Assembly: GCA_050293845.1 (NCBI GenBank)
Contig: JBNKNM010000156.1
Span: forward strand, 1-13,197
DNA from: Pseudobacteriovorax sp.
GTDB taxonomy: Bacteria > Bdellovibrionota_B > Oligoflexia > Oligoflexales > Oligoflexaceae
Reading direction: 5' to 3'
Length of the DNA stretch: 13,197 nucleotides
Under the pieces are notes generated by a model that worked only from the letters and a program-made list of their open reading frames with translations, had not been told where the DNA came from and ran no database searches. A program made the position numbers and the translations under genes. Positions 1 to 13,197 of this stretch are shown piece after piece; the stretch's first letter is position 1, and each line of letters starts with the position of its first letter.

Positions 1-540
1 AAAATGCCTTTCGGGCTCGTTTTATATTCAAATTATCTAAATCAATTGCCTATATCTTAACCAGCTATTCGAATAAACTACATTCCTCCAATCCAGATGG
101 CGGTTATAACTTATATTCATCGAAAAAATGCTTACGAGGGATGTGTCCATATTAGGCTCCATGGGCAGGAATGATTTGTTGTAGTGTCTTGGTATTGATC
201 CTTAGTGTTTGCTACTTATTTTCCTAACGCTTTGGATGCGAATAACCTGCTATTAGAGCATTGTTTTTTTGCACTTAAAAATAGAAATGAAAGACATACA
301 CTGCAGGATTGATTTTTTCCAAAACTATAGAGTAAGTCTTCCCAAATTTTTTAGAGCCGGAAGACTAGCTATTCTTTGCCATTTCGGTCAATGTGGATCA
401 ACATAAAATACCTGTGAAAATCAAGACATAATTTGTTGCGGTAAATATTCTTTACTTTATTTTTAGAAATATTAAGAATCTCCTTAGGCATTCCTAATAA
501 ATAATCTGGCAAGTTTGGAAGGTACGAATTTATCCTTATT

Positions 541-969
541 ATGAGGTTGTTAATGAATAAGACCGCATTTATGAAAATTGTCAGTAAACTCCCAGGTCTA
601 ACCCCGACAGGATTTATTTCCACGTTCCATCACGATTATTTAAAAAAACGTTCTGAATTAGAAAATAGGGCTATATATCTTCAGCAAACTATCGACGCTT
701 ACCACTATCTATGCAAATTCACGAAATCGAAGATTATGACTAAATGGCAGAAATTCAACTGCACTCCCTCTAAGATTCAAGGACTTGTGGAGTGGAACGC
801 CGGACGTGAAGTTCTTCCTGGTCCTATAATTGTTGCTGCTGTGTATGCAGGATTTGATCTTCATTACAGTGGGTTAGGTGATCCTTGCTTTAATATCTTT
901 GCCCGACAATTGGAAGGGGAATTGCGTGACTATCGGGTAAGAGAAATTATAAAACGCGCTGTAGGTTAG
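541..969 (+). CDS. hypothetical protein (142 aa; true start may be a downstream Met)
   Basis: Longest ORF in an otherwise AT-rich region with plausible amino-acid composition. No family recognised with confidence and no clear SD. Confidence 0.6.
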   Translation: MRLLMNKTAFMKIVSKLPGLTPTGFISTFHHDYLKKRSELENRAIYLQQTIDAYHYLCKFTKSKIMTKWQKFNCTPSKIQGLVEWNAGREVLPGPIIVAAVYAGFDLHYSGLGDPCFNIFARQLEGELRDYRVREIIKRAVG

Positions 970-1167
970 TATTGCAAATATTACTGAAACAGCATTATTT
1001 TTACTTTTACGCCTTGGATCACTGAAGGAACTCAGCAGACTACCGGTAGTTATTTGCCTGAAATTTCAGGAAAAATATTGCTAGCAAAAAAAAACTAAAC
1101 AGAGTTACTCCTTCACCGAGCTAATCTTATAACATGCTCATGCATGTTTGGATTAGTGGAGGAATAT

Positions 1168-1311
1168 ATGATCAGAGTAAAATTTTTCAAGAGGTATTGG
1201 CAAATTTTGTTATGCGCTATTTATCTGCTTGCTCTTCAAAAGCTCCTTGCATTTTCCAATAAAGATCAGCATCTTAGCGTCTCGGGTGAGCATATTGAGT
1301 ATCGGCGATAG
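1168..1311 (+). CDS. small single-TM or signal-peptide protein, 47 aa (MIRVKFFKRYWQILLCAIYLLALQKLLAFSNKDQHLSVSGEHIEYRR)
   Basis: Translated by hand; not in the ORF track. Perfect SD GGAGG at 1158-1162, 5 nt before the ATG. Basic N-terminus then a hydrophobic stretch. A strong hairpin follows the TAG. Confidence 0.6.
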   Translation: MIRVKFFKRYWQILLCAIYLLALQKLLAFSNKDQHLSVSGEHIEYRR

Positions 1312-1317
1312 GATTTG

Positions 1318-1340
1318 ATGAGGGGTTTAGCACCCCTCAT
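1318..1340. terminator. stem-loop between the convergent small ORF and cysK, possibly a bidirectional terminator
   Basis: ATGAGGGGT-ttagc-ACCCCTCAT is a perfect 9-bp stem between the stops at 1311 (+) and 1366 (-). U-tracts are weak on both strands. Confidence 0.55.
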
Positions 1341-1365
1341 AATGTTCGTTTTGAAGCAGTAATTA

Positions 1366-2307
1366 TTAGTCTTCAAACAACCAAGTAGAAAGGTACCTTT
1401 CTCCCGCACTTGGTAAGATGGCAACGATAGTCTTACCACGATTTTCTTCTCGAGAAGCAACATCCAATGCAACTTTGACGGCAGCTCCTGATGAAATACC
1501 AATTAGAATACCTTCTTCCTTTGCAGTTTTTCTTGCAAAAACCCCCGCCTCATCATTGTCAACTTGAATCACCTCGTCAATAATTTCTGTCTTTAATACA
1601 TCGGGTATAAACCCAGCGCCGATTCCCTGAATTTTGTGGGGACCAGGCTCACCTCCCGAAAGTACTGGCGAGCCTTTAGGCTCAATGGCGATAGCTTTAA
1701 AACCAGGCTTGAGCTCTTTAAGTACGCTGGCTACACCTGTAATTGTCCCCCCTGTTCCCACGCCCGACACTAATATATCTACATTTCCATCGGTATCATC
1801 CCAAATTTCCTGGGCTGTAGTGCGACGATGAATATCTGGATTCGCTGGATTTTTGAATTGCTGTGGCATGAAGTATTTTTCATCTGAAGCTGCAATTTCT
1901 TCAGCCTTTGCAATAGCTCCCTTCATGCCTTTTTCGCCTGGAGTCAGAACCAGCGAGGCTCCCAGAGCTTTTAACAGTTTTCGTCTTTCGATAGACATAG
2001 TGTCGGGCATGGTTAGGGTGAGAGGATAGCCTTTTGCAGCAGCAACAAATGCCAAACCAATACCAGTATTTCCACTTGTGGGCTCTACTATGGCCTTACC
2101 CGGTTTTAGATCTCCACTGGTTTCTGCTTGCTCGATCATGCTAAATGCTATGCGATCCTTTACTGAGCTTAAGGGATTAAAGAACTCACACTTCACTAGA
2201 ACTCTGCCGGGTAACCCTTTAGCCAACTTACTTAACTCTACAAGTGGGGTGTTACCAATCGTTTCCAAAATACTTTTAGCAATTTTAGGTCTTTGAATAC
2301 GTTCCAT
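1366..2307 (-). CDS. cysK: cysteine synthase A (O-acetylserine sulfhydrylase)
   Basis: Motifs [16 protein letters not shown] (PLP lysine), [23 protein letters not shown] and GERYLST. SD AGGAG upstream. Confidence 0.97.
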
Positions 2308-2324
2308 ATAATACTCCTGATAAG

Positions 2325-3155
2325 TTAAATACCTTCACCGTCTCTAAAAAAAGCTTGTTGATAACGTGTTTGTAAAATCCGGCTGTTAGCCGGAACCGTT
2401 TCAGTAATCCAAACATTTCCTCCAATGATAGAATGATGTCCTATGGTAATGCGTCCTAGTATGGTAGCCCCAGCGTAAATGACCACGTGACTTTCGACAA
2501 TAGGATGGCGCGGAATCGCTTTCACTAAAGTTCCATCTTCATTTTGAGGAAAACTTTTGGACCCTAATGTGACTCCCTGATAGATGCGACAGTAGTCTCC
2601 TATAATTGCTGTTTCGCCGATAACTATGCCTGTGCCATGATCGAGAAAGCACCCGGCTCCAATGGAAGCTCCTGGATGGATATCAATTCCTGTTTTAGAG
2701 TGAGATATTTCGCTGATCAGGCGTGGTAGTAGCGGGACTTTGCGCTGAAACAATAAATGGGCGATACGATGGCTAAGCATAGTACGGATACTAGGATATG
2801 AAATAATGATTTCTTCACGGCTAATAGCGGCAGGGTCCCCCTCGTATGCTGCTTTGATATCCTCGTGAAGGCTTTTTTTGATCGTCGGGAGCTGAGTGAG
2901 AAGCGAGTCGAAATCGGCATCTATCAGTTCTGAGCTGCGCTTAACCTTTAGGTGCTCCACGATTGTACTATATTGGTCCAATAGCGCTTGCACAAGTGAT
3001 GTTAGTTGAGACTGACTGTGACCATCTTTAAGCAGAATATTCTCAAGGCTTAAAATGAACTCTTCTACTGCAGATCGGGCTTTATGAATTGGTACTGTTT
3101 GACCTTGAGAAAGCGACAGCAGATTATTTACGGTATACTCCAAAGAAGGTGACAT
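2325..3155 (-). CDS. cysE: serine O-acetyltransferase
   Basis: Motifs [35 protein letters not shown] and RHP, with hexapeptide repeats. ATG 3155 is preferred because it has an AAGGA SD; the ORF-track start at 3182 has none. Confidence 0.93.
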
Positions 3156-3191
3156 AATTAAATCCTTGCTAACTAATCCCATTGATATAAT

Positions 3192-3776
3192 TTATAAACT
3201 TCCAAACTGAGCTTGCAAAGTACGTTTATTAAGGGGAATGGTGCCATCATGCTCCCAAACCCGGAAAGAGCTATCCTTTCCTACCTGTTGTGCGGCGCGG
3301 TTGATAATATATACATCTCTGTCAAATTGATCTAGAAAAGCTTTTCGCATCGGGTCCCAGTCTTGGAAAACAAAAATGGGGTAGATAGAATAAGTAGAGA
3401 CCTCCTCTACCCACTTTCGCATCAACTGTGAAGGCACCGTTTCGAAATGTTCCCCATCTAACATGACGGTAGGTCGCTGTAGTTGATAAAGAACTCGTCT
3501 TAATGCTGGAACAATAGATCCACCTTTTGAGTTCTTATTCTCAATAACAGCAATGATCTTAGGGGGTATCGAAATTTTTCCCCACGGAACTTGATTCCAT
3601 ATCCGTTCATGGAAAAAGTAAAGCACCATTTTAGCTATTGCCTCAGATCCTCCAATAACGAAGGCCACCCGCCAGTTACCGGTAAAAATGATAACCAGAA
3701 TGGCTGTTGCTGTTGTGGCCAGAAAGCGCCAACTAAGGGTTTTGGCAACAGATCTTAAATTAGAGTCCTGTTTCAT
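3192..3776 (-). CDS. DUF2061-like membrane protein fused to a degenerate APS-kinase-like domain
   Basis: The N-terminus RSVAKTLSWR...LYFFHERIW...WG matches the DUF2061 pattern with two hydrophobic segments. The C-terminus has VMLDGE, similar to CysC LDGD, but no GxxGxGKS/T P-loop. Confidence 0.8.
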   Translation of the reverse strand: MKQDSNLRSVAKTLSWRFLATTATAILVIIFTGNWRVAFVIGGSEAIAKMVLYFFHERIWNQVPWGKISIPPKIIAVIENKNSKGGSIVPALRRVLYQLQRPTVMLDGEHFETVPSQLMRKWVEEVSTYSIYPIFVFQDWDPMRKAFLDQFDRDVYIINRAAQQVGKDSSFRVWEHDGTIPLNKRTLQAQFGSL

Positions 3777-5289
3777 AAGGAGGCTCCTTCAGACTTATAT
3801 CCTTACTGGTATGAGCATCGCCTGACCAGATCATTTCTTGGTGTTTGAACTCTAGAAAACTCTTACGATTGGTTAAAAGTTTAATTTGGGAATCAGCCAG
3901 TTTTTGTAGCCACCAGTGATCCCGCGGCTCAAGGGCTTCGTCTTTTTCATCCCAGATGAGTAGGCTACGGTATCGGTTCTGAGCTTGAATCTGTTCCAAG
4001 TAGGATCTGTCGTTACTGTAGTGCCAAATGGCAGGTTCTCGATGGGAAACTTTGAGTTCTAACGACTTGCTAAAAAAGCCAGCACCGACAGTTCCGTGAG
4101 AATCGGGGTCGATTAAGATGAATGAACCGGTCGATCTTGATATATCATAAGGGTCGGATGGCAGTCGTTGATAGCTTTGAATTCTCACCTTTCCAATATC
4201 GTTAAGTTCCAGTTTTGTTACCTGTTCAAATGCGAAAGATTCAAGGTTATATTTGCCAAGAACTTGGGTGAGTTCTGCTGGTACAAGACGTTCCCTATGT
4301 TTGAGTAAATAGTTTTTCGTTTTGTGGCTGGGCTGATCATCGAACCAGATCAAGTCTGCTTCCCACTCATTTGAGTAAAATACGTCATGGTTGGTATCTA
4401 CCATGATGGATCCGCGATCACAATCAATGTCGTCTTCTAAGGAAACCACAAGGGAGTAGCCTGTATTTGCCTTGGTGATTTCTTCCTCACCACGAAAAAT
4501 AGCTTTCACGCGACTTTGTGTTTGTGAGGGGTATACTTTGACAACGTCACCAACTTTTAAAGTACCTGAAACGAGACGGCCAGCAAACCCTCGGAAATCT
4601 TGGTGAGGACGAATGACATACTGAACACTAAATCTTGTGGGACTATCTGTATTTTGTTTACTGGAAATGCCTTCTAAAACTTCAAGTAAACTCGGGCCTG
4701 CAAACCAAGCCAGTCGATCGCTGCGTTGGGTAACCTGATCTCCCTCTAAGGCGCTAATAGGAATGGATAACCATTCCGTAATGCCGATATTTCTTGCCAG
4801 ACTTTCAATATCTTTTTCTATACTGCGAAAAACCTCTTCCTTGTAATCACAGCGATCGATTTTGTTAACAGCAAATATGAAGTGAGGGATTCCCAGCAAA
4901 GAACTTATTTTGGTATGACGTCTCGTTTGTTGGGTTAGTCCTTGGGTGCAGTCGATTAAAATGATAGCCACATCGGCTGTCGAGGCCCCTGTGGCCATAT
5001 TGCGGGTATATTGTACATGGCCAGGGGTGTCGGCGAGTATATATTTTTTTTGGGGAGTGCTGAAGTATTTATAGGCGACATCAATGGTGATTCCTTGTTC
5101 CCGCTCCGACTTTAAACCATCGGTAAAAGCTGCAAAATCTACTTCAGAAGGATGTGTTTTACTCTTTATTTGTAACAATTGGTCTTCCATAATTGCCTGG
5201 CAATCGTGCATGAGACGACCAATCAGTGTTGACTTTCCATCATCAACACTACCGGCTGTTGAAATGCGAAGAAGTTGGGAGCTACTCAT
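3760..5289 (-). CDS. cysN: sulfate adenylyltransferase subunit 1 (GTPase) with a C-terminal extension of about 95 aa
   Basis: Motifs GSVDDGKSTLIGRL, EREQGITIDVAY, DTPGH, NKID and GSFILID. TAATG overlap with the cysD stop. Confidence 0.96.
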   Translation of the reverse strand: MSSSQLLRISTAGSVDDGKSTLIGRLMHDCQAIMEDQLLQIKSKTHPSEVDFAAFTDGLKSEREQGITIDVAYKYFSTPQKKYILADTPGHVQYTRNMATGASTADVAIILIDCTQGLTQQTRRHTKISSLLGIPHFIFAVNKIDRCDYKEEVFRSIEKDIESLARNIGITEWLSIPISALEGDQVTQRSDRLAWFAGPSLLEVLEGISSKQNTDSPTRFSVQYVIRPHQDFRGFAGRLVSGTLKVGDVVKVYPSQTQSRVKAIFRGEEEITKANTGYSLVVSLEDDIDCDRGSIMVDTNHDVFYSNEWEADLIWFDDQPSHKTKNYLLKHRERLVPAELTQVLGKYNLESFAFEQVTKLELNDIGKVRIQSYQRLPSDPYDISRSTGSFILIDPDSHGTVGAGFFSKSLELKVSHREPAIWHYSNDRSYLEQIQAQNRYRSLLIWDEKDEALEPRDHWWLQKLADSQIKLLTNRKSFLEFKHQEMIWSGDAHTSKDISLKEPPYETGL

Positions 5290-6185
5290 TAAAAATACCC
5301 CTCTCGCTTTTTTGTTTCCATGGATGCTTCTCCATCGTAGTCAATGATTCTTGTTATTCTTTCTGAAGTTTTTGTTTGCACCATTTCAGCTATGATCTCA
5401 TCTAAATTCTTTGCTGTAGAAGCAACGGCTCCCGTACAAGGGTAGCAGCCTAAGGTGCGAAAACGGGACCAGATCATCTTTGCTTCTGGAGGTATATTAT
5501 CACCGAGAACTGGGATGAGTTGACCACTTTTTTCTAGCATGGGTCTTTTCTGAGCAAAATATAAAGGAACGATAGGAATATTCTCTAATTGAATATAACT
5601 CCAGATATCTAGCTCAGTCCAATTGGATAGGGGAAAAACGCGAATACTTTCTCCTCTATAAATTTTAGTGTTAAAAAGATCCCAAAGTTCGGGTCTTTGA
5701 TTTTTGGGGTCCCACTGCCCATGTCTGTCTCGGAAAGAAAAAAAGCGCTCTTTTGCGCGCGATTTTTCTTCATCGCGGCGGGCTCCTCCAATGGCGGCAT
5801 CAACTTCATACTTACTTAGTGCATCTAATAATGCTTTGGTTTTTAATAATCCGCAACAGCGCATCGTTCCGAGTTTAGATGGGTGAGTTCCTGCTGTGAT
5901 GGCTTCTTCATTACGATAGACCAATAATTCAAAGCCGTGTTTTGCAGCAAATTTATTGCGGAACACAATCATCTCGGGAAACTTATAACTGGTATCAACA
6001 TGCAGTAAGCGAAAAGGAATTTTTCCGGGGAAAAAAGCTTTTTTAGCTAGGTGGACTAATACTGAAGAATCCTTACCAATCGAGTAAAGAATTACAGGCT
6101 TCTCAAAATTTGCAGCTACCTCTCGTATAATGAAGATGCTTTCATCCTCAAGATCTCTTAATTGCTTTTGGTTTAGGTCTAACAT
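5289..6185 (-). CDS. cysD: sulfate adenylyltransferase subunit 2
   Basis: Motifs [43 protein letters not shown] and C-terminal KKREGYF. SD AGGAG. Confidence 0.97.
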
Positions 6186-6197
6186 GAAAATGCTCTC

Positions 6198-6905
6198 CTA
6201 TTTATATGAGTGTAACCCACACTCTTTCGTCGTGTTTTGTTCCCACCACCATCGTCCTTCACGAAAGTCAGCTGTGGCTGGTATAGGGCGGGTGCATGGA
6301 GCGCAACCGATACTGGAAAAACCTCTCTTATGCAGAGAGTTCATGGGAAATTCAAGCTCCTTTTGCCTGGCTTTTAATTGCTCCCAGCTCCAATTCCACA
6401 AAGGACTGATTTTAACTCTACTGTGTTTATCTAGTTCAAAAAGTTGCAGATTGGCTCGTGCCGCTGATTGCTGGCGTCTTAAACCTGTGATCCAAGCTGT
6501 TTTACCCTTAAGAGCCCGTTGTAGTGGTCTTACCTTTCGGACTTCGCAGCACGAAAGCCTTTGAGGGACACCATCATAGAAGCCATTGATACCAAATTCC
6601 TTTACGTAGCTTTCTACGTCATCTGGATTAGGAAAGTATGGTGTTAAGATTTTGCCATAGACTCTTTCTACATCTGAAATCAGTTGGTAAGTTTCGTCGT
6701 GAAGGCGTCCTGTATCTAGATAAAAAATTTCAGATGCGATATTTTCTTTTACTATGGTGTCAAGAATCAGCATATCTTCTAAACCAAAGCTACAAGCAAA
6801 TGTAAGTTTTTTAGGAAAGGTTTTACTGGCAAAATATAAAGAATCTGCCTCATTCTTTTGTGCAAAATCCTGATTCCAACTAGCTATTTGTTCTATACTT
6901 ATCAT
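6198..6905 (-). CDS. cysH: adenylylsulfate (APS) reductase, CysH family, 4Fe-4S type
   Basis: Motifs SFGLED, LDTG, CCEVRK, WITGLRRQQS, SIGCAPCT, REGRW and ECGLH. The CC...CxxC pattern marks APS rather than PAPS reductases. Confidence 0.95.
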   Translation of the reverse strand: MISIEQIASWNQDFAQKNEADSLYFASKTFPKKLTFACSFGLEDMLILDTIVKENIASEIFYLDTGRLHDETYQLISDVERVYGKILTPYFPNPDDVESYVKEFGINGFYDGVPQRLSCCEVRKVRPLQRALKGKTAWITGLRRQQSAARANLQLFELDKHSRVKISPLWNWSWEQLKARQKELEFPMNSLHKRGFSSIGCAPCTRPIPATADFREGRWWWEQNTTKECGLHSYK

Positions 6906-6908
6906 GAC

Positions 6909-8573
6909 CTATGCCTCAAACCGTGAAAGAAATTCAAACCCTCGACGCTGGCTATAATCTCCAAAACTTTCATGGGGCAAAGAACTAGCCGACCACTCAG
7001 TAAAAGCCTGATCCAGTAGTTCTAAGATTTCTGGTATAGTCTTCTTCACAGCAACTTGCTGGTTGAGCCGGGTACCCTGGGCATCACCACCCAAATAAAG
7101 TGCATACTTACCAGGTAATTGGCCGACTAAGCCGATCTCAGCGGCATAGGGCCTTGCGCACCCATTGGGACATCCTGTGATTCTTACTGTTGGTGGTGTA
7201 GCAGCCTTGCCATGTTTATCAAGAAGACTGGCTATGGCATTAAAAAGTTCTTCTCCAATGCGTTCAGATTCAGCAAATGCCTTTACACAGGTGGGCAAGG
7301 CTACGCAAGTTACTGCACGATTCAGAAGGCTATGAGGACTGTAAGGATTAATGCCCCATTTGTCAAAAACGGTTTCGACTTTATTAACATCTTCAGGGGC
7401 AATTCCTTCCAGTATAAGATCTTGCTCAGGAGTTACTTGAACATGACTGGCAAAGTTGCTAATAAGCTCTTTAATAGCAGTTTTAAGCTTGCTATGATCG
7501 CGATCGACAATTCTTCCTGATAAGAGGTGAAGTCCAAATGCTTTTTTACCATTTTCTTGATCATGCCATCCGAGATAGTTAGGTGTTTCCCAAGCTGGTA
7601 ATGGCTTTTCTACAAATTTAAATTGAGCTCTTTTTTCAACCTCTTCACGGAACCAATCAAGCCCTTGTTTAGCGATGGTATATTTGAGCCTCGCCAAGGC
7701 GCGATTGTCTCGGTTACCAAAGTCCCTTTGTGTGGTAACTATAGCTTCTGCTACAGGTATAAGTAATTCAGCACTTATCCACCCTAAGCTATCTGCTAAG
7801 CGCGGATAAGTGGAAGGATCGCTGTGGGACTGGCCCATGCCACCACCAGCAAATACAAAGTATCCGTTGATTTTATAATCATTATCAAATGTAGCAGCGA
7901 AAGCTAGATCATGGGTGAAAAGATCAATATTGTTATTTCCTGCTTGTGTGACGCCGATCTTAAATTTACGTGGTAAATAACTATCTCCGTAGACCTTGTC
8001 TGCTTCATCAATAATTTTTCTGTCATCTAAAAAGATTTCATAGTAAGCGTTCGACTTAACCTCGAAATAGGAAGATAGTAAATCGGCTACTTTATCCAAT
8101 GCAGCAAGATCTTTGCGACCCCAGGGGTTTACAGCCTGTGTAACATTTCTAACTACATCGCCGCAAGCGCCTGTGGTGGACTGTAAGGTTTCATTGATCC
8201 TTTTTATCGTTTGTTTAACGTCCTTTTTTAAAACACCATGAACCTGGATACTTTGCCTTGTTGTTAAACGAAGGCCATTGTCAGAGTATTGATCAGCTAG
8301 CTCATCCCAAATTAACCATTGTTGTCTGCTAAGTCGCCCTCCAGGAATGCGGCCTCGAACCATAACAGTAAATGGCTTGGGACCCAAATGTTTTTCTTCT
8401 GGCTTGCGGCGGTCACGATTTTTTTGTTGATACATCCCGTGAAACTTCATCAGGTTGTCAGTTTGATTACTAAAACGCGGTTTATCGTTAGACAGCTCTT
8501 CGGCTATATGACCTCGTAAACCCCTTGATTCCAATTTTAACACTTCCATCGCGGATAGCTTTGTCTTGCTCAT
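6909..8573 (-). CDS. cysI: siroheme/4Fe-4S sulfite reductase hemoprotein (CysI/Sir)
   Basis: Motifs KFHGMYQQ, LRLTTRQ, GACGDVVRNV, LPRKFKIG, CVALPTC and TGCPNGC. Start moved to ATG 8573, which has an AAGGA SD and an ATGA overlap with the upstream stop, instead of 8645. Confidence 0.94.
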   Translation of the reverse strand: MSKTKLSAMEVLKLESRGLRGHIAEELSNDKPRFSNQTDNLMKFHGMYQQKNRDRRKPEEKHLGPKPFTVMVRGRIPGGRLSRQQWLIWDELADQYSDNGLRLTTRQSIQVHGVLKKDVKQTIKRINETLQSTTGACGDVVRNVTQAVNPWGRKDLAALDKVADLLSSYFEVKSNAYYEIFLDDRKIIDEADKVYGDSYLPRKFKIGVTQAGNNNIDLFTHDLAFAATFDNDYKINGYFVFAGGGMGQSHSDPSTYPRLADSLGWISAELLIPVAEAIVTTQRDFGNRDNRALARLKYTIAKQGLDWFREEVEKRAQFKFVEKPLPAWETPNYLGWHDQENGKKAFGLHLLSGRIVDRDHSKLKTAIKELISNFASHVQVTPEQDLILEGIAPEDVNKVETVFDKWGINPYSPHSLLNRAVTCVALPTCVKAFAESERIGEELFNAIASLLDKHGKAATPPTVRITGCPNGCARPYAAEIGLVGQLPGKYALYLGGDAQGTRLNQQVAVKKTIPEILELLDQAFTEWSASSLPHESFGDYSQRRGFEFLSRFEA

Positions 8574-9208
8574 AACGATGAGTTCCTTTCGTAATTTTCT
8601 AATTTTTTCTGTGTATAATGAGGCTTTAAGTACTGTTCGTCCCATTGTTTCAGCATATGGCGAAAGATATGGGTTCGTTCTGTGATATCAGGATATAATT
8701 TCTTTAAACGTTGACGCAGATCTATGAGTTTAGAAACTTCTGTATGGTGGTCCTGAGGCAAAATTTCTTCGAGGATTTCTCGAATAGCTTTAGCTAAACC
8801 AGGCAGCCTTCCTTCGGAAGATACTGCAATTTGTGTTGGTCCATAGTGGATTTGGGCTGAAAATAGAAAGTCACAATTTGTACGATCGTCGACAGCATTT
8901 ACTAATTTACCAAGTCGATGACAATCGGTAACGATCTCAGTATTTATATCGTGATGATTTGTGGCAATGATGACTAAATGGTGGGGAAGGGCATCCTTCG
9001 ATCTATATTCTCTGCGAACGATAGTGATTTTTTCCGGATGAAGATAGGCAAAATCCAGAATTTCCTCAGATATATCCGGGGCAACAACAGTAATGGAAGC
9101 ATCGGTGCGAATCAGCTTTTCTAGCTTTTCTTTAGCCACGCGTCCTGCTCCTACCAGGAGAATTGATTTTCCCTTTAGGTCAAAAAATAGGGGTAGCAAC
9201 TTGTTCAC
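8570..9208 (-). CDS. precorrin-2 dehydrogenase / sirohydrochlorin ferrochelatase (CysG N-terminal, SirC/Met8-like)
   Basis: Motifs LPLFFDLKGKSILLVGAGRVA (NAD-binding Rossmann), VNAVDD..CDF and IAVSSEG..PGLA. Likely start is GTG 9208 with an AAGGA SD. Confidence 0.9.
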   Translation of the reverse strand: MNKLLPLFFDLKGKSILLVGAGRVAKEKLEKLIRTDASITVVAPDISEEILDFAYLHPEKITIVRREYRSKDALPHHLVIIATNHHDINTEIVTDCHRLGKLVNAVDDRTNCDFLFSAQIHYGPTQIAVSSEGRLPGLAKAIREILEEILPQDHHTEVSKLIDLRQRLKKLYPDITERTHIFRHMLKQWDEQYLKPHYTQKKLENYERNSSL

Positions 9209-9968
9209 TTTGTATCCTTTCATGTAAGTGGGAAATTTGTTCATGCCATGATTCAAAGATCTCCACGGTTGCGCCAACATAGATGATTCCTGGTCCTTTA
9301 GTTGTCTTGAGGCATTTATGATTTACTGCTGCGTTTAAATCATGAATTTGCCAATGCTGGTTCATGGCGGCATCGGATTCCACCAAAATCAACTTTTTAT
9401 TGGGGTTCGCACCTGCCTCGATGAGTCGGTGGGCAATCTCTGCGACTTTTTTTGAGGCCATAAATATAGCTAGAGTTCCATTAAAGCAGGCAAGGTCATG
9501 GTAATCGCTGGGTTCGTTGCCGAGGGTATGACCTTCTACGATCATTAATTTGCGAACTATACCTCTATGGGTGAGAGGAAGACCAATATTACTGGCGATA
9601 CCATTAAGCGAGGAAAGTCCGGGAACAATATTGATGCTAATACCTTTTTCCATGATGGCCTGAACTTCTTCACCGCCACGACCGAAAATGAAGGGGTCAC
9701 CACCTTTTAATCTCACCACATGATGTCCGGCAAGGGCCCACTTGATTAACTGCTTTTCAATTTGTCTTTGGGGAAGGATGTGGTTATCGCACCTCTTGCC
9801 AACATGAAAATGGGGAACTCCCTGAGGAAATATTTTCTGGAAATTGTTTGCTAGCAGGCTGTCATAGAAAATGACATCTGCTGATTGCAAAACCTTATAG
9901 GCTTTCATGGTCAAGAGTTCAGGGTCACCAGGCCCTGCACCAACTAGGCTAACGCTCCCGTTCGGCAT
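9180..9968 (-). CDS. cobA: uroporphyrinogen-III C-methyltransferase (SUMT)
   Basis: Motifs VSLVGAGPGDPELLT, VVRLKGGDPFIFGRGGEE and PLTHRG. ATG 9968 has GGAG 6 nt upstream; the ORF-track GTG at 9980 overlaps that SD. Confidence 0.94.
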   Translation of the reverse strand: MPNGSVSLVGAGPGDPELLTMKAYKVLQSADVIFYDSLLANNFQKIFPQGVPHFHVGKRCDNHILPQRQIEKQLIKWALAGHHVVRLKGGDPFIFGRGGEEVQAIMEKGISINIVPGLSSLNGIASNIGLPLTHRGIVRKLMIVEGHTLGNEPSDYHDLACFNGTLAIFMASKKVAEIAHRLIEAGANPNKKLILVESDAAMNQHWQIHDLNAAVNHKCLKTTKGPGIIYVGATVEIFESWHEQISHLHERIQSEQVATPIF

Positions 9969-9992
9969 AGCAAACTCCACATATGGATTCTA

Positions 9993-10016
9993 TATGACCT
10001 TTAACTGCGGGTCATA
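9993..10016 (-). promoter_or_regulatory. hairpin in the operon 5' leader
   Basis: mRNA sense UAUGACC-cgcaguuaaa-GGUCAUA is a perfect 7-bp stem between the leader ORF and the cobA SD. Confidence 0.5.
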
Positions 10017-10034
10017 AAAGCTTCTTAATTTTTT

Positions 10035-10070
10035 AATGAAAAATGAAAGACGTTGCTGAGATTAGCAACA
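10035..10070 (-). terminator. putative attenuator hairpin overlapping the last Cys codons and stop of the leader ORF, followed by a U-rich tract
   Basis: mRNA UGUUGCU-aaucuc-AGCAACG (6 Watson-Crick pairs plus U-G), followed by UCUUUCAUUUUUCAUU. Confidence 0.5.
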
Positions 10071-10175
10071 ACAAGAAAGGCAACAAAGACAGGGAATGAT
10101 GGCAAGGGTAGAAGGAGTAACAGTTATATGATCCTGGGATGTTTCCTGATATAATCGATGGAATTGTAAGTTCAT
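10062..10175 (-). CDS. putative cysteine-rich leader peptide, 37 aa (MNLQFHRLYQETSQDHITVTPSTLAIIPCLCCLSCCC)
   Basis: Translated by hand. The ATG at 10175 is preceded by AAAGGGT (SD-like). Six of the last nine sense codons are Cys, then TAA. It lies directly upstream of, and co-oriented with, the cys operon. Confidence 0.85.
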   Translation of the reverse strand: MNLQFHRLYQETSQDHITVTPSTLAIIPCLCCLSCCC

Positions 10176-10456
10176 CTTTGCGACCCTTTACGCAACAGTT
10201 GTTTTAACACCAATTTCCTTTTCGGATATTCTGGCCAGAAAGTCAATCTGTAAGGAGAAAAAAAAGTATTTTCCAGCTGTTAATTCCTCCTATTTCGAAG
10301 CTTTGTAGCAAAATTCTTAATAATTCCAATTGCTAAATTTGATTTTGAGGGCGAGCCTTTTCCTTTAAAAAAATTAAATGATTGCATTTGCTTTGGTCTT
10401 TGCCAAAATCGCAAGGAAAGGGCTGTGGTATCCTGGGGTAATGAGTTCCATGCTAT

Positions 10457-11812
10457 TCAGGGTGAAATCAACCATTGCTGGTTTAATCCACCATTTGTCG
10501 GCCATTGAATATTTTGTGCACCATCTAGTGTAGATGCACCGCTAATATCTAGCAACTTCCCGCTATTGCGATTAACAATGCTGTAATAACCGTTGCCAAG
10601 GGGTATTATACGCCAATCTTGACTTGTCCCGCCACTCTCAGCGTTCTGAACGTTTTCAGCTCCATTCTGTGAAGATGTTCCCCTAATATCGAAAAAATGA
10701 CCACTAAGAGTACTTACAATATTATAATAGCCATTATCTTTTCTTATAATATTCCATTTTTGAAACTCATAATTTTCATCAGGGTACTGTTGGATCAAGG
10801 CATCTTCTGCAAATTTGTTTGTGCCGCTAATGGTCAGAACTTTGCCACTATTTCGGTTGATTATTCTATAACTATCTGGAAAAATATGGTTTTCTGCTTC
10901 GATGCTAGACAAGGTCACCACAACTGGTTGAATGGCACCATCCGCGCTAAAGTGGAGCCGATCGATAGCAACCTCACGATGATAACCATCTCCTCCCGGT
11001 ATGGCAAAGCGATGATAAACCATATAATAATCGTCATTGTTGATATCCTTTAGAACGGAGTTATGTCCTGTTCCCAAAATACCAAGTGAAGAGTTTTTCA
11101 TTAAAATTATCGTATTTTGATTTGTAAATGGACCTAAGGGATTATCGGCCGTAGCATAGCCTATGCGATAGTCTTCGCTCCTAGTATCATTTTCAGACCA
11201 TAATAAATAGTATATGCCGTTTCTTTTGAAGACTTCAGCACCTTCATTAAAGCCTGATGGAGTGATGTTTTGAGGGGGAGTATTAAACGAGATCATATCA
11301 GCATTTAACTTAGCTACATGCAAGGCACCTTGCCCGAAGTATAGATATGCCTGTCCATCATCATCAATAAACACATCAGGATCAATAGACTGCCCCCCAT
11401 ATTCACCCACTGTTACTAAAGGCCCACCGATAGCATCAACAAATGGGCCTATGGGCGAGGATGACTTTGCAACTCCGATTTGTTGATCAGCACAAAAATA
11501 AAAATAGAATACGCCATCTTTTTGTGCGATGCTTGGCGCCCAGGCATTATCAGTAGCCCAACTTACATTAGCGAAGTTTAGGATTTCTCCATCATCTTGC
11601 CAGTGAATCAAATCAGTAGATGAAAACACACGATAGCGATCAGACATCCAGCCTATAGAGCCATCCGTTGTGGGGTAAATATAATATGTATCACCCACGA
11701 TAAGTACTTCAGGGTCTGCATATAATCCCGAAAATATCGGATTTTCAGAGTATCCAAGATTTGCCACAAATAGAAGTATGAAAGCAACAACTGCGTGCTT
11801 AACTTTTGACAT
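10457..11812 (-). CDS. secreted glycoside hydrolase family 43 with C-terminal ricin-B (CBM13-like) domain
   Basis: Signal peptide, then YADP (catalytic base), WAP, SIDP (pKa modulator), NEG (acid) and GHNS. QxW repeats (QKW, QDW, QQW) and NRNSGK repeats occur in the C-terminus. SD GAGGGG. Confidence 0.92.
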   Translation of the reverse strand: MSKVKHAVVAFILLFVANLGYSENPIFSGLYADPEVLIVGDTYYIYPTTDGSIGWMSDRYRVFSSTDLIHWQDDGEILNFANVSWATDNAWAPSIAQKDGVFYFYFCADQQIGVAKSSSPIGPFVDAIGGPLVTVGEYGGQSIDPDVFIDDDGQAYLYFGQGALHVAKLNADMISFNTPPQNITPSGFNEGAEVFKRNGIYYLLWSENDTRSEDYRIGYATADNPLGPFTNQNTIILMKNSSLGILGTGHNSVLKDINNDDYYMVYHRFAIPGGDGYHREVAIDRLHFSADGAIQPVVVTLSSIEAENHIFPDSYRIINRNSGKVLTISGTNKFAEDALIQQYPDENYEFQKWNIIRKDNGYYNIVSTLSGHFFDIRGTSSQNGAENVQNAESGGTSQDWRIIPLGNGYYSIVNRNSGKLLDISGASTLDGAQNIQWPTNGGLNQQWLISP

Positions 11813-12045
11813 TAATTTAATCCCCTCTTATCAAGCTTTCACTTTGATAGATATACTTTCGTAACCGTTCACTACCTAGCTTGTCATGTCTTGACAAATT
11901 TATTTAGATAGCTTTCGATTGAGGCTAGCTTTAATCACCCTGGATCGATCTAGAGTAGTTCCACTAACCTATATTATCGGTAATAGTAACGAAAGTTGAT
12001 TGCTGAAGTAAAGTTTAGAGAAATTAAATCGTGGCTGCGGTCATG

Positions 12046-12072
12046 GATGGGTTGGCAGAACGCGAACCCATC
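12046..12072. terminator. stem-loop just downstream of the metalloprotease stop
   Basis: GATGGGTT (12046-12053) and AACCCATC (12065-12072) form an 8-bp stem 14 nt past the stop. There is no U-tract on the minus strand. Confidence 0.4.
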
Positions 12073-12086
12073 TTGGTGAAAAAATA

Positions 12087-13127
12087 TTAGTAGCTGCAGC
12101 AACGCACACTAATATTATCACAATAGCTACCTGAGCAACGCATACCGGTCACCGCTTTACCACGGGAGCATATATGATGGTGAGCATTCTTAAAGTATCC
12201 TTCTTCCTCACTAAAGGCTGCAGACCAATAGCAGTCTTTAACTGATTGTTCAGCTACTTCGTAGGTTAATATCATATTATCACAGTAACGGCCTTTGCAC
12301 GCGATGCTCTTGACGAAACCGTTATTAGTCATCACTTCGCCGTCATCGGAAAACTGTGCTGACTTTATGGTTTGCCGGGTTAAGGGTTGAGCCGGCTCTG
12401 CGCAGAAAATCCTTTTATTGTCACAGTATTTCCCATAGCAAGCTAGGCCAATCATAACGCTCGATCCGCTACAGCTGGAACTACCTTGTTCTTCACTAAA
12501 AACGTTGGGAATGGCATTCTCAGGATTATCGAAAATGCCATTAGGATATCGCGTCATAGCTCCCAATTTATCCAAAACTGAAGGCCGTGCCCGATCCCAA
12601 TCGGAGTTATTGTAAGCCTTTGACGCAAAAGGATAGTACATGATTGAACGGTTATCTATCTCCGATAGAGGAATACCTCGATCATTGTGTTCATGGGTAA
12701 ATCCAAGGGTATGGCCCCACTCATGGATCATAATTCCGTACAATATTTCATTCATTAATGAACCATGGTTAATTAACTTGCCTTCGATTAAATTGAGATT
12801 TAAAGGCTGATTCTTATACGAACTAGGGTAGGTGGCAGAAGCTCGCGCCGCATTGGGGTCATCTATAGCTCTAATGACATAGTCTGGCTTATTGTTGCAT
12901 GAAACTTCCTTATAAAGAACATTGGCATATTCTTGCCATTCCCCGATCGTAGATTTGGCAACTCTGCTTACCGTGGCTCGATGGTTTCCTAAGTTAGAAT
13001 GTAAGCAATAACTGACTTTAGATTTCTGTTTAGCGCTGATAGTTGCAAGATTGAGCTTTGACATGGCACCGTGTTTATCGCCACATGATACCAGCCATAG
13101 AACGCTAATAATTATTCCTAATTTCAT
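12087..13127 (-). CDS. lipoprotein metzincin Zn-metalloprotease (astacin/matrixin-like) with three Cys-rich C-terminal repeats
   Basis: Lipobox LVSC after MK and a hydrophobic core. HEWGHTLGFTHE (HExxHxxGxxH, 12693-12725) and Met-turn SIMYY. FS[ED][ED]...CxGxYCDN occurs three times. ATG 13127 has a GGAG SD. Confidence 0.88.
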   Translation of the reverse strand: MKLGIIISVLWLVSCGDKHGAMSKLNLATISAKQKSKVSYCLHSNLGNHRATVSRVAKSTIGEWQEYANVLYKEVSCNNKPDYVIRAIDDPNAARASATYPSSYKNQPLNLNLIEGKLINHGSLMNEILYGIMIHEWGHTLGFTHEHNDRGIPLSEIDNRSIMYYPFASKAYNNSDWDRARPSVLDKLGAMTRYPNGIFDNPENAIPNVFSEEQGSSSCSGSSVMIGLACYGKYCDNKRIFCAEPAQPLTRQTIKSAQFSDDGEVMTNNGFVKSIACKGRYCDNMILTYEVAEQSVKDCYWSAAFSEEEGYFKNAHHHICSRGKAVTGMRCSGSYCDNISVRCCSY

Positions 13128-13131
13128 CAAA

Positions 13132-13178
13132 CTTCTCCAGGAAACCCGGTCTCTTTAGGGCCGGGAGGAATGGAGAAG
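13132..13178 (+). mobile_element. GC-rich hairpin resembling an IS200/IS605-family subterminal palindrome (or a REP-like element); any element body would lie beyond the window
   Basis: Outer arms CTTCTCCA/TGGAGAAG, a GGAAA/AGGAA internal loop and inner stem CCCGGTC...GGCCGGG around TCTTTAG. The CTTTAGGG...GGGAGGA pattern recalls IS605-type ends. GC content rises abruptly here. Confidence 0.5.
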
Positions 13179-13197
13179 CCCTGCGGCGAGCATCGAA

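Follow-up and report, generated by a model that had tools for sequence, protein, structure and literature searches.

A conserved leader open reading frame ending in a cysteine run ahead of the cys operon of Oligoflexales, a candidate sensor of Cys-tRNA

A stretch of 13,197 nucleotides (nt) of Pseudobacteriovorax sp. (assembly GCA_050293845.1, contig JBNKNM010000156.1, positions 1 to 13,197 of the forward strand; hereafter, the window) was analysed for a short open reading frame (ORF) on its minus strand, the leader ORF, which encodes the 37-residue peptide MNLQFHRLYQETSQDHITVTPSTLAIIPCLCCLSCCC and stands ahead of a nine-gene cys operon. All six cysteines of the peptide fall within its last nine codons (TGT at 10091-89, TGT at 10085-83, TGC at 10082-80, TGT at 10073-71, TGT at 10070-68 and TGC at 10067-65), and 28 sense codons precede this Cys run. 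Moreover, a Shine-Dalgarno (SD)-like AAAGGGT is found at 10189-10183, 8 nt 5′ of the leader ATG, and the leader stop codon lies 93 nt 5′ of the ATG of cobA, the gene at the head of the operon. An earlier note on this DNA, made from the letters, had described this poly-Cys ORF with its six Cys in the last nine codons, its AAAGGGT and its distance of 93 nt to cobA, and the sequence and the translation agreed with it exactly. The elements of the leader and of the spacer that follows it are listed below in the order in which they would be transcribed.

10062..10175, minus strand: leader ORF, 37 codons plus TAA (ATG at 10175-10173, stop TAA at 10064-10062), from sequence and translation; orthologous ORFs of the relatives have 31-51 codons
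10091..10168, minus strand: C-rich, G-poor tract of 78 nt in the leader ORF (24 C and 7 G), of rut-like composition, from a window scan in which the best position was ORF nt 7
10065..10091, minus strand: Cys run C-L-C-C-L-S-C-C-C with six UGY codons, the proposed stalling site, from sequence and translation
10051..10073, minus strand: hairpin with 5′ arm GTTGCT (10069-10064), loop AATCTC and 3′ arm AGCAAC (10057-10052), from palindrome listing and folding
10035..10050, minus strand: U-rich tract TCTTTCATTTTTCATT (as RNA, UCUUUCAUUUUUCAUU) directly 3′ of the hairpin, a candidate terminator tail or pause site, from sequence and folding
9966..9978, minus strand: ribosome-binding site (RBS) of cobA, GGAG at 9978-9975, with its ATG at 9968-9966, from sequence; alignments of the orthologues begin at residue 1-2

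The downstream operon covers siroheme synthesis and sulfate reduction through to cysE-cysK, and its nine genes, which the earlier note had claimed, were recognized with Pfam and NCBIfam. That note had also called it a complete sulfate-to-cysteine operon, which stood for the nine genes and was slightly generous in one respect, as neither a sulfate transporter nor a gene for adenosine 5′-phosphosulfate (APS) kinase is found among them.

1366..9968, minus strand: nine-gene operon (Pfam, NCBIfam), all genes on one strand with gaps of ≤17 nt or overlaps
9968-9180, minus strand: cobA
9280-8570, minus strand: gene similar to the N-terminal part of cysG
8645-6909, minus strand: cysI/sir
6905-6198, minus strand: cysH, reductase of APS or 3′-phosphoadenosine 5′-phosphosulfate (PAPS)
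6185-5289, minus strand: cysD
5289-3760, minus strand: cysN
3776-3192, minus strand: gene for a DUF2061 protein
3182-2325, minus strand: cysE
2307-1366, minus strand: cysK

The conservation of the leader was followed with cobA as the query (orthologue cut-off, E ≤ 1e-40) in 131 genomes of the class Oligoflexia, 19 of which held a cobA orthologue. In 13 of these 19 genomes, the operon was preceded by a short ORF whose last 10 residues include 4-7 Cys, with 11 loci in the family of the window (L006-L013 and L015-L017) and two in a second family of the order (L120 and L124). Degenerate Cys tails appeared in two further Oligoflexus loci (L014 and L018), where the peptides end in LRLCCS and HLSCC, respectively, right before the stop codon. 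The contig of L119 ended too early for the leader to be judged, and no Cys leader was found within 0.8-1.5 kb in L121-L123, which are three genomes of two other families. Furthermore, records of Oligoflexus tunisiensis, of two Oligoflexus metagenome-assembled genomes (MAGs) and of a Pseudobacteriovorax MAG (L066, L051, L114 and L109) presented the leader ORF in full with a TP_methylase (cobA) gene behind it, and the peptides of these four records were identical to leaders of the relatives of the window in its family or genus. At L124 (G033, reverse strand 3873-7000), the operon was lengthened by sbp-cysT-cysW-cysA ahead of cobA, and the leader preceded these transporter genes; that is, the leader tracks the head of the operon and not cobA.

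The upstream sequence was complete in 14 Oligoflexales loci, while 15 loci were used for the hairpin tests. In all 14, the leader ORF had a length of 31-51 codons, an SD-like motif (GGAGG, GAGGT, GGAG or AAGGG) was found 5-10 nt 5′ of its ATG, and a box TTGACA or TTGACT appeared 59-75 nt upstream of that ATG. The spacer from the leader stop codon to the cobA side varied from 78 to 268 nt across Oligoflexales. When the peptides were aligned, the only conserved columns were Met1 and the C-terminal Cys and Leu columns, and the relatives varied synonymously at both kinds of codon (TGT or TGC for Cys; CTT, CTC, CTG or CTA for Leu). Such synonymous switching, together with a conservation limited to the Cys tail, is as expected of a leader that is translated and otherwise unconstrained. 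On this comparative evidence, the leader ORF is not a chance ORF. Within the genome of the window, an assembly of 6.68 Mb with a GC content of 41%, only five ORFs of 10-70 codons had an SD-like motif, a start codon and four or more Cys among their last nine residues, and the leader was the only one of the five with 6 Cys.

Exact matches to four leader peptides, those of the window and of the type strain among them, were sought in a collection of ~15 billion predicted proteins, where none was found; the leader ORF is left unannotated everywhere, as the earlier note had held for the window. Moreover, the comparison of the whole window, on both strands, with 4227 Rfam families (T-box, SAM riboswitches and the Thr, Leu, His and Trp leaders included) returned 0 matches at E ≤ 1, which bears out the claim that neither a T-box nor an S-box element is found here. 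The genome had been taken from its letters to be non-actinobacterial, and the records of Oligoflexus and Pseudobacteriovorax that carry the same leaders, as well as the GC content, confirm it. Finally, the check proposed at that time, a search for short ORFs ending in Cys runs ahead of the cobA operons of relatives, gave the 13 of 19 genomes and the two weak CC tails described above, so that a conserved run, the lack of which was to count against the idea, does exist. Altogether, the reading of the leader as a putative cysteine-sensing attenuator is supported at the comparative level.

The Cys codons take part in a local RNA structure. The 5′ arm of the hairpin of the window is made of the last two Cys codons and the T of the TAA stop codon, and its free energy of −7.1 kcal/mol was rarely reached when the downstream 28 nt were shuffled 1000 times (p=0.003). 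The equivalent hairpin, tested likewise with 1000 shuffles, had p ≤ 0.03 in 10 of the 15 loci and p of 0.06-0.07 in two others, and it was absent from the remaining three, which were the two degenerate leaders and L015. Combining one locus per genus by the method of Fisher gave p=1.6e-7, or 8e-6 when Oligoflexus was represented by its worst locus. In addition, the 3′ arm changes by lineage in step with the local Cys codons, appearing as AGCAAC, GCAAC, AACAGCG, CAACGGC, AACAACGG, UCAACAGC or ACAACAAC. A U-run (at least 6 U in 8 nt) followed the hairpin in 7 of the 12 loci with a hairpin, namely the window and six others, and reached eight consecutive U in two Oligoflexus loci.

Sites of the rut type are characterized by a C-rich, G-poor composition. 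A 78-nt tract with more C than G was found in all 14 Oligoflexales leaders, with an excess of C over G of 12-23, and it ranked within the top 0.5% of its own locus in 12 of them. The tract of the window was in the top 0.4% of the 78-nt windows of its locus, and an excess of C over G of at least 17 occurred in only 0.5% of the 78-nt windows across the genome (G000). The bias continues into the 60 nt past the stop codon, where C exceeded G in 14 of the 15 loci and equalled it in one (L011).

Beyond the hairpin, common structures were sought at larger scale. Every relative has some stable hairpin in the spacer, with a sequence and a pairing partner that vary between loci, and the folding of the whole leader of the window was no more stable than that of its shuffles (z=+0.93). 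RNAalifold gave no common structure across genera with 8 loci; with 5 close Oligoflexus loci it gave a global fold with almost no covariation, which is not relied on here. No separate conserved terminator stem was found in the leader loci. A relay model, in which the 3′ arm pairs with a downstream segment, was rejected, as it was significant only in three closely related Oligoflexus loci.

The recurrence of the layout outside the class was assessed with a 24-nt Cys-run pattern over one genome per species, which resulted in 83 matches, most of them due to chance (no start codon or unrelated downstream genes); the four Oligoflexus and Pseudobacteriovorax records described above were among the matches. 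Outside Oligoflexia, a genuine ORF with a relevant gene downstream was present at three matches. Relatives were searched by the downstream gene, and the search is thus unbiased by the Cys pattern. In a group of Ignavibacteriales, relatives of the MAG of L069 (31 genomes with 24 cysE loci), a frame ending in a Cys run, such as MKHSINFNHITIEATPKGFHSSFNSHCCCCLCCCC, was found 60-87 nt before cysE in 13 of the 24 loci (L129-L138, L140, L143 and L150), with an ATG in 11 of the 13. The hairpin formed by Cys codons, stop codon and complement had p ≤ 0.05 in 8 of these 13, most being strong (−9 to −17 kcal/mol); the tract with more C than G was in the top 2% in 9 of 11, and no U-run was found after the Ignavibacteriales hairpins. 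In MAGs of small genomes (1-2.5 Mb) labelled Rickettsiales, a Cys leader was present 22-67 nt before cysG, encoding siroheme synthase, in 7 of 9 loci (L153-L159). At L159, the 3′ arm of the Cys hairpin extends to the start region of cysG. Finally, in a Mucilaginibacter group, a Cys leader such as MKAFLLSHSSSSKLSGAFQVRMMCCLCCCC was found 100-440 nt before the gene of a TonB-dependent receptor of ~1050 residues in 10 of the 11 loci examined (L162, L163, L165 and L167-L173), which suggests that this transporter, whose substrate is unassigned, may be regulated by cysteine or sulfur.

Upstream of the leader ORF, and in the spacer that follows it, four further elements were distinguished.

10241..10246, minus strand: −35-like box TTGACT, placed 71 nt 5′ of the leader ATG, from sequence, with a putative promoter function
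10218..10223, minus strand: candidate −10 box GAAAAG, spaced 17 nt from the −35-like box and poorly matching TATAAT, placed by eye and absent from the scored promoter-like sites
10178..10195, minus strand: small hairpin TTGCG/CGCAA of the 5′ untranslated region (UTR), whose loop presents AAAGGGT, from palindrome listing and sequence
9994..10015, minus strand: second spacer hairpin, ATGACC-N10-GGTCAT, from folding

By eye, the same spacing of 17 nt leads to GAAAAG or GAAAAC in L007 and L008 and to CAnnTT in the Oligoflexus loci. An activator may be required at the putative leader promoter, or an unusual −10 box may be typical of the lineage.

Several observations concern the neighbouring genes. 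The cysH product (6198-6905, minus strand) scored 231 bits with the model of thioredoxin-dependent APS reductase, just below the cut-off of that model (235). The cysN product (509 residues) lacks a kinase domain, and there is no cysC (APS kinase) in the operon. The assimilation of sulfate probably runs through APS. The DUF2061 gene (3192-3776, minus strand), placed between cysN and cysE, encodes 194 residues with an N-terminal DUF2061 membrane domain and had no NCBIfam match; a membrane function related to sulfate or sulfite is our guess for it. No Sbp homologue was found in the genome of the window with the L124 query, a search that is uninformative. A perfect 9-bp GC-rich palindromic hairpin lies at 1318-1340, 26 nt past the cysK stop codon, with no U-run on the operon strand, and the 3′ end of the operon is not a canonical intrinsic terminator. 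At the other end, the gene upstream of the leader (10457-11812, minus strand) encodes a glycoside hydrolase of family GH43 that is fused to ricin-type lectin repeats. It has no tie to sulfur metabolism, and the cys locus has its 5′ boundary there. As for other amino acids, leader peptides with runs of H, W, F, T, L, I, M, R or P were sought in a crude scan of the genome, in which three candidates were followed and none held, two being rejected for lying within larger ORFs. The third, a mini-ORF encoding MPIRHHHHH (L125; G000 contig C700 of 525 nt, 110-139, plus strand), with a C-terminal His run and only 2 nt from GGAG to ATG, is on a contig too short for a downstream gene to be seen and may be due to chance.

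What is observed at these loci comprises the ORF and its conservation, the SD sites, the −35 box, the hairpin, the U-run, the tract with more C than G and the gene context. Given these, the leader is probably a peptide gene that senses Cys-tRNA and controls the premature termination of the cys operon, where the translation of the leader, the stalling, the termination and the sign of the response are what we infer. The operon mRNA would start ~35 nt upstream of the leader SD, and a ribosome would translate 28 codons within C-rich, G-poor RNA before meeting the six Cys codons among the last nine. With plentiful Cys-tRNA, the ribosome would reach the stop codon and leave, upon which the Cys codons would pair with the sequence past the stop codon (hairpin and U-run), the C-rich RNA would lie bare and transcription would end before cobA. 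With scarce Cys-tRNA, the ribosome would be held on the Cys run with its followers queued behind it, so that the 5′ arm of the hairpin would be held and the C-rich tract covered, and the RNA polymerase would continue into cobA-cysG′-cysI-cysH-cysDN-cysE-cysK.

Two routes of termination are conceivable. A Rho-dependent route similar to that of tna, in which stalled and queued ribosomes would mask the rut-like tract and the hairpin with its U-run would act as a pause, is given somewhat less than an even chance. The rho gene is present in the genome (713 bits, above the cut-off). A ribosome stalled anywhere in the Cys run, together with its queue, would cover the tract and bar Rho, and hence the response would have the right sign without fine timing; this route would also account for the Cys run abutting the stop codon. 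Intrinsic termination at the hairpin and U-run is a further candidate, which we hold possible though clearly short of even. In this reading, the simplest, the sensing codons are themselves the 5′ arm and a stalled ribosome would act directly as the antiterminator. Besides, a tail of eight U is hard to put down to chance in an Oligoflexus genome with a GC content of 54%, the value stated in the part of the genome report used here (PMC5154148). A translational or other output that does not involve termination is unlikely. In several loci, the CCUC or CCUU (UGC-CUN) of the Cys run was predicted to pair with the SD of the leader itself in minimum free energy structures, from which comes the idea that re-initiation could be limited when no ribosome occupies the run.

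A number of points weigh against control of termination by the leader, or against one of its routes. The hairpin of the window is weak (−7.1 kcal/mol with 6-7 pairs, or 8 if G-T is counted), 5 of the 12 hairpins have no U-run, including both loci of the second family, and the operon's own 3′ hairpin also lacks one. In the genome of the window, terminator-like motifs were found after only 85 of 1500 long ORFs, a modest enrichment compared with 25 of 1500 mid-ORF controls. The geometry is awkward too by our reasoning, since, given the size of its footprint, a ribosome with its A site on Cys29 or Cys31 would stop short of the 5′ arm at codons 36-38. Furthermore, a closely trailing ribosome would mask the 5′ arm even when cysteine is plentiful, given the spacing in the expressome, while with the polymerase far ahead the hairpin would form before any ribosome arrives. 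For a purely intrinsic, occluded terminator, the right sign would thus be confined to a narrow kinetic range, in which the polymerase pauses for a suitable time. The leader loci gave no conserved antiterminator, a partner for the 3′ arm being significant in 3 of the 15, all close Oligoflexus relatives. Regarding the Rho route, it is drawn from base composition and the presence of rho, and the excess of C over G could instead mirror a peptide rich in Ser, Thr, Pro, Ala and Leu or selection for unstructured RNA. Finally, the SD-like AAAGGGT of the leader is a weak match, and no second Cys leader was found in the genome of the window, either in the genome ORF scan or in the 700 nt before cysS.

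A first alternative, which we consider improbable, is that attenuation acts on translation, in the manner of mycobacteria, ermC or cat; a full-length mRNA would always be made, the Cys run or a relay would close the cobA RBS and a stall would open it. Such a mechanism works at equilibrium and would escape the kinetic problem of the occluded terminator, and the pairing of an SD by the Cys tract is proven for the mycobacterial polycysteine small ORFs (sORFs) in the part of the preprint cited here (10.1101/834739). In the five Oligoflexus loci, RNAalifold also paired UUGCCUCU of the Cys run with GGGAG-GCAA of the cobA RBS, but these pairs are invariant and hence show no covariation, and the duplex between Cys run and cobA RBS was no better than shuffles in 14 of the 15 loci (−3.5 kcal/mol in the window versus a shuffle mean of −10.7, p=1.0). 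Nor did masking of the Cys run raise the modelled probability of an unpaired SD-AUG, which in the window was 0.40 versus 0.40-0.45 for the whole leader and 0.51 versus 0.46-0.47 for its 3′ part alone; with the ribosome set on each Cys codon or on the stop codon in 14-15 loci, no consistent change was obtained. The spacers of 78-268 nt in Oligoflexales and 100-440 nt in the Mucilaginibacter group fit an output independent of distance. In favour of this alternative, the Cys hairpin of L159, a compact locus from a different phylum, has a 3′ arm that comes to within 22 nt of where the next gene starts.

An independent small gene with its own promoter and terminator, encoding a functional Cys-rich peptide (for instance, metal- or redox-active), with the operon promoter located in the spacer, is a very improbable explanation. 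The −35-like box upstream, the hairpin with a U-run right after the stop codon and the fairly constant length of the peptide (31-51 residues) would suit such a gene, but the conservation of the peptide is limited to Met1 and the Cys tail, ORFs of this kind precede differing cysteine or sulfur genes in four phyla, and the leader follows the head of the operon when a transporter is added. The spacer does hold a weak promoter-like site (ATGACC-17-TAGAAT, 10015-9987); however, promoter-like sites in the stretch numbered 3 against a shuffle mean of 2.6, and no comparable spacer promoter was seen by eye in the Oligoflexus loci. Last, an RNA element read by a cysteine-responsive, TRAP-like protein or a riboswitch, made of (UGY)n repeats and the hairpin with the frame being incidental, can hardly be credited. 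Triplet-repeat RNA beside a hairpin does resemble protein-binding repeat leaders, and conservation is seen in the RNA features (hairpin and C-rich tract) and not in the peptide. However, all 14 loci retain the frame, the SD and the ATG and have the stop codon immediately past the run, codon variation is synonymous, the repeats are always read as Cys and never in the other frames, no Rfam family matched and the spacer has no conserved structured domain.

Control of cysteine biosynthesis is usually described in terms of the proteins CysB and CymR or of T-box and S-box RNAs. The conserved leader of Oligoflexales and its counterparts of like layout in three other groups, which stand ahead of cysE, of cysG and of a gene for a TonB-dependent transporter, suggest a broader phenomenon: leader peptides that sense Cys-tRNA may be no less general than attenuation at trp or his, and would have been overlooked because gene callers never call such ORFs. 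A wider proposal, which we regard as doubtful, is that the leader belongs to a widespread and so far unpublished Gram-negative class of cysteine sensors (Oligoflexales, Ignavibacteriales, Bacteroidota and small-genome MAGs) with a C-terminal Cys run, where queued ribosomes would cover a rut-like ORF and melt a hairpin of Cys codons, leaving a Rho-dependent decision to tRNA charging, unlike the textbook or mycobacterial modes. For annotation, the rule could be adopted that a gene behind a short ORF with a terminal Cys run is regulated by sulfur or cysteine, which would extend to genes whose role is unassigned. Moreover, the leader would be a compact part for cysteine-responsive expression, and the cultured, harmless Oligoflexus tunisiensis Shr3, which carries the leader (L066/L013), provides a testable case. 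The mechanistic question is how read-through would result from a ribosome stalled at the very end of the leader when the Cys codons are the 5′ arm of the hairpin, the stop codon is in its loop and the ORF is C-rich.

Among known systems, the trp, his, leu and thr attenuators of Proteobacteria have an SD-led leader ORF with a cluster of codons for the amino acid of their own operon, and the trp 1:2 hairpin contains or adjoins both the regulatory codons and the stop codon. The leader of Oligoflexia resembles them in its SD-led ORF, its codons for the amino acid of the operon and the position of codons and stop codon in or beside a hairpin. In contrast, the alternative 1:2, 2:3 and 3:4 set with a distal terminator was not found conserved in Oligoflexia, the sensing codons are at the extreme C-terminus and the ORF is long (31-51 codons). 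In the tnaC-tnaA system of E. coli, the ribosome that stays at the very end of the leader ORF would keep Rho off the C-rich RNA there and just beyond. What holds that ribosome at the stop codon is the action of free tryptophan on the nascent peptide rather than a shortage of charged tRNA. The likeness to tna, which is one of composition only, comprises C-rich, G-poor RNA at the leader ORF and a long untranslated spacer before the first structural gene. However, the stall proposed in Oligoflexia would come from a shortage of Cys-tRNA, and Rho dependence is suggested there by composition and the presence of rho.

The comparisons that follow are limited to the parts of the published sources on which they draw. 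The mycobacterial polycysteine sORFs (Ms5788A and others, the ‘Cys ribulon’) are cysteine-responsive attenuators (Canestrari et al., bioRxiv 10.1101/834739), and the leader of Oligoflexia is similar to them in being a short ORF that ends in a Cys run upstream of a cysteine-related operon, with Cys codons that form one strand of a putatively inhibitory RNA duplex and a stall that would be read as the cysteine signal. However, the mycobacterial ORFs are leaderless, while that of Oligoflexia has an SD and an implied 5′ UTR of ~25-35 nt, as judged from the −35 box. In mycobacteria, the partner of the Cys tract is the SD region of the following gene and the control is translational, whereas the Cys codons of Oligoflexia pair right after the stop codon, 60-250 nt from the next RBS. 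As the leader of Oligoflexia is not leaderless and the pairing of run and SD is unsupported, two defining features of the mycobacterial system fail in it. Mycobacteria have, in addition, several such loci per genome versus one in the genome of the window, and the phylum differs.

In Actinobacteria, leader peptides with Cys runs near the stop codon were predicted upstream of cys and cbs operons (Seliverstov et al. 2005, PMC1262725), and, according to the part of that article used here, they had no conserved terminator hairpin, for which a Rho-dependent termination as in tna was proposed. The Cys run near the stop codon is common to that prediction and to Oligoflexia, and the Rho route is a shared candidate; by contrast, Oligoflexia has a conserved hairpin of Cys codons, with a U-run in about half of the loci. 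In Rhodobacterales, an upstream ORF (uORF) of cysS, uORFC-8-2, has its Cys codons in a first stem and a U-run that fits an intrinsic terminator, and it was interpreted as ribosome-mediated attenuation that answers to Cys-tRNA (Brewer et al. 2021, PMC8632094, in the section concerned). In that case, two tandem Cys codons in the middle of the peptide (14-15) and two separate stems are found, and a tRNA synthetase is controlled rather than biosynthesis, whereas the leaders of Oligoflexia have 4-7 Cys at the very C-terminus and the stop codon in the loop of the hairpin. No Cys uORF was found in the 700 nt upstream of cysS in the genome of the window.

Full-text searches found no published Cys leader in Oligoflexia, Ignavibacteria or Bacteroidota, in agreement with the suggestion in the earlier note that the leader may be undescribed, and the supplementary sORF list of 10.1101/834739 may name more taxa. 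As found in these searches, published ribosome-mediated sensing of cysteine is confined to Actinobacteria and to the cysS of Rhodobacterales. The leader of Oligoflexia shares its principle with these published cases, while its lineage and its layout are new to print.

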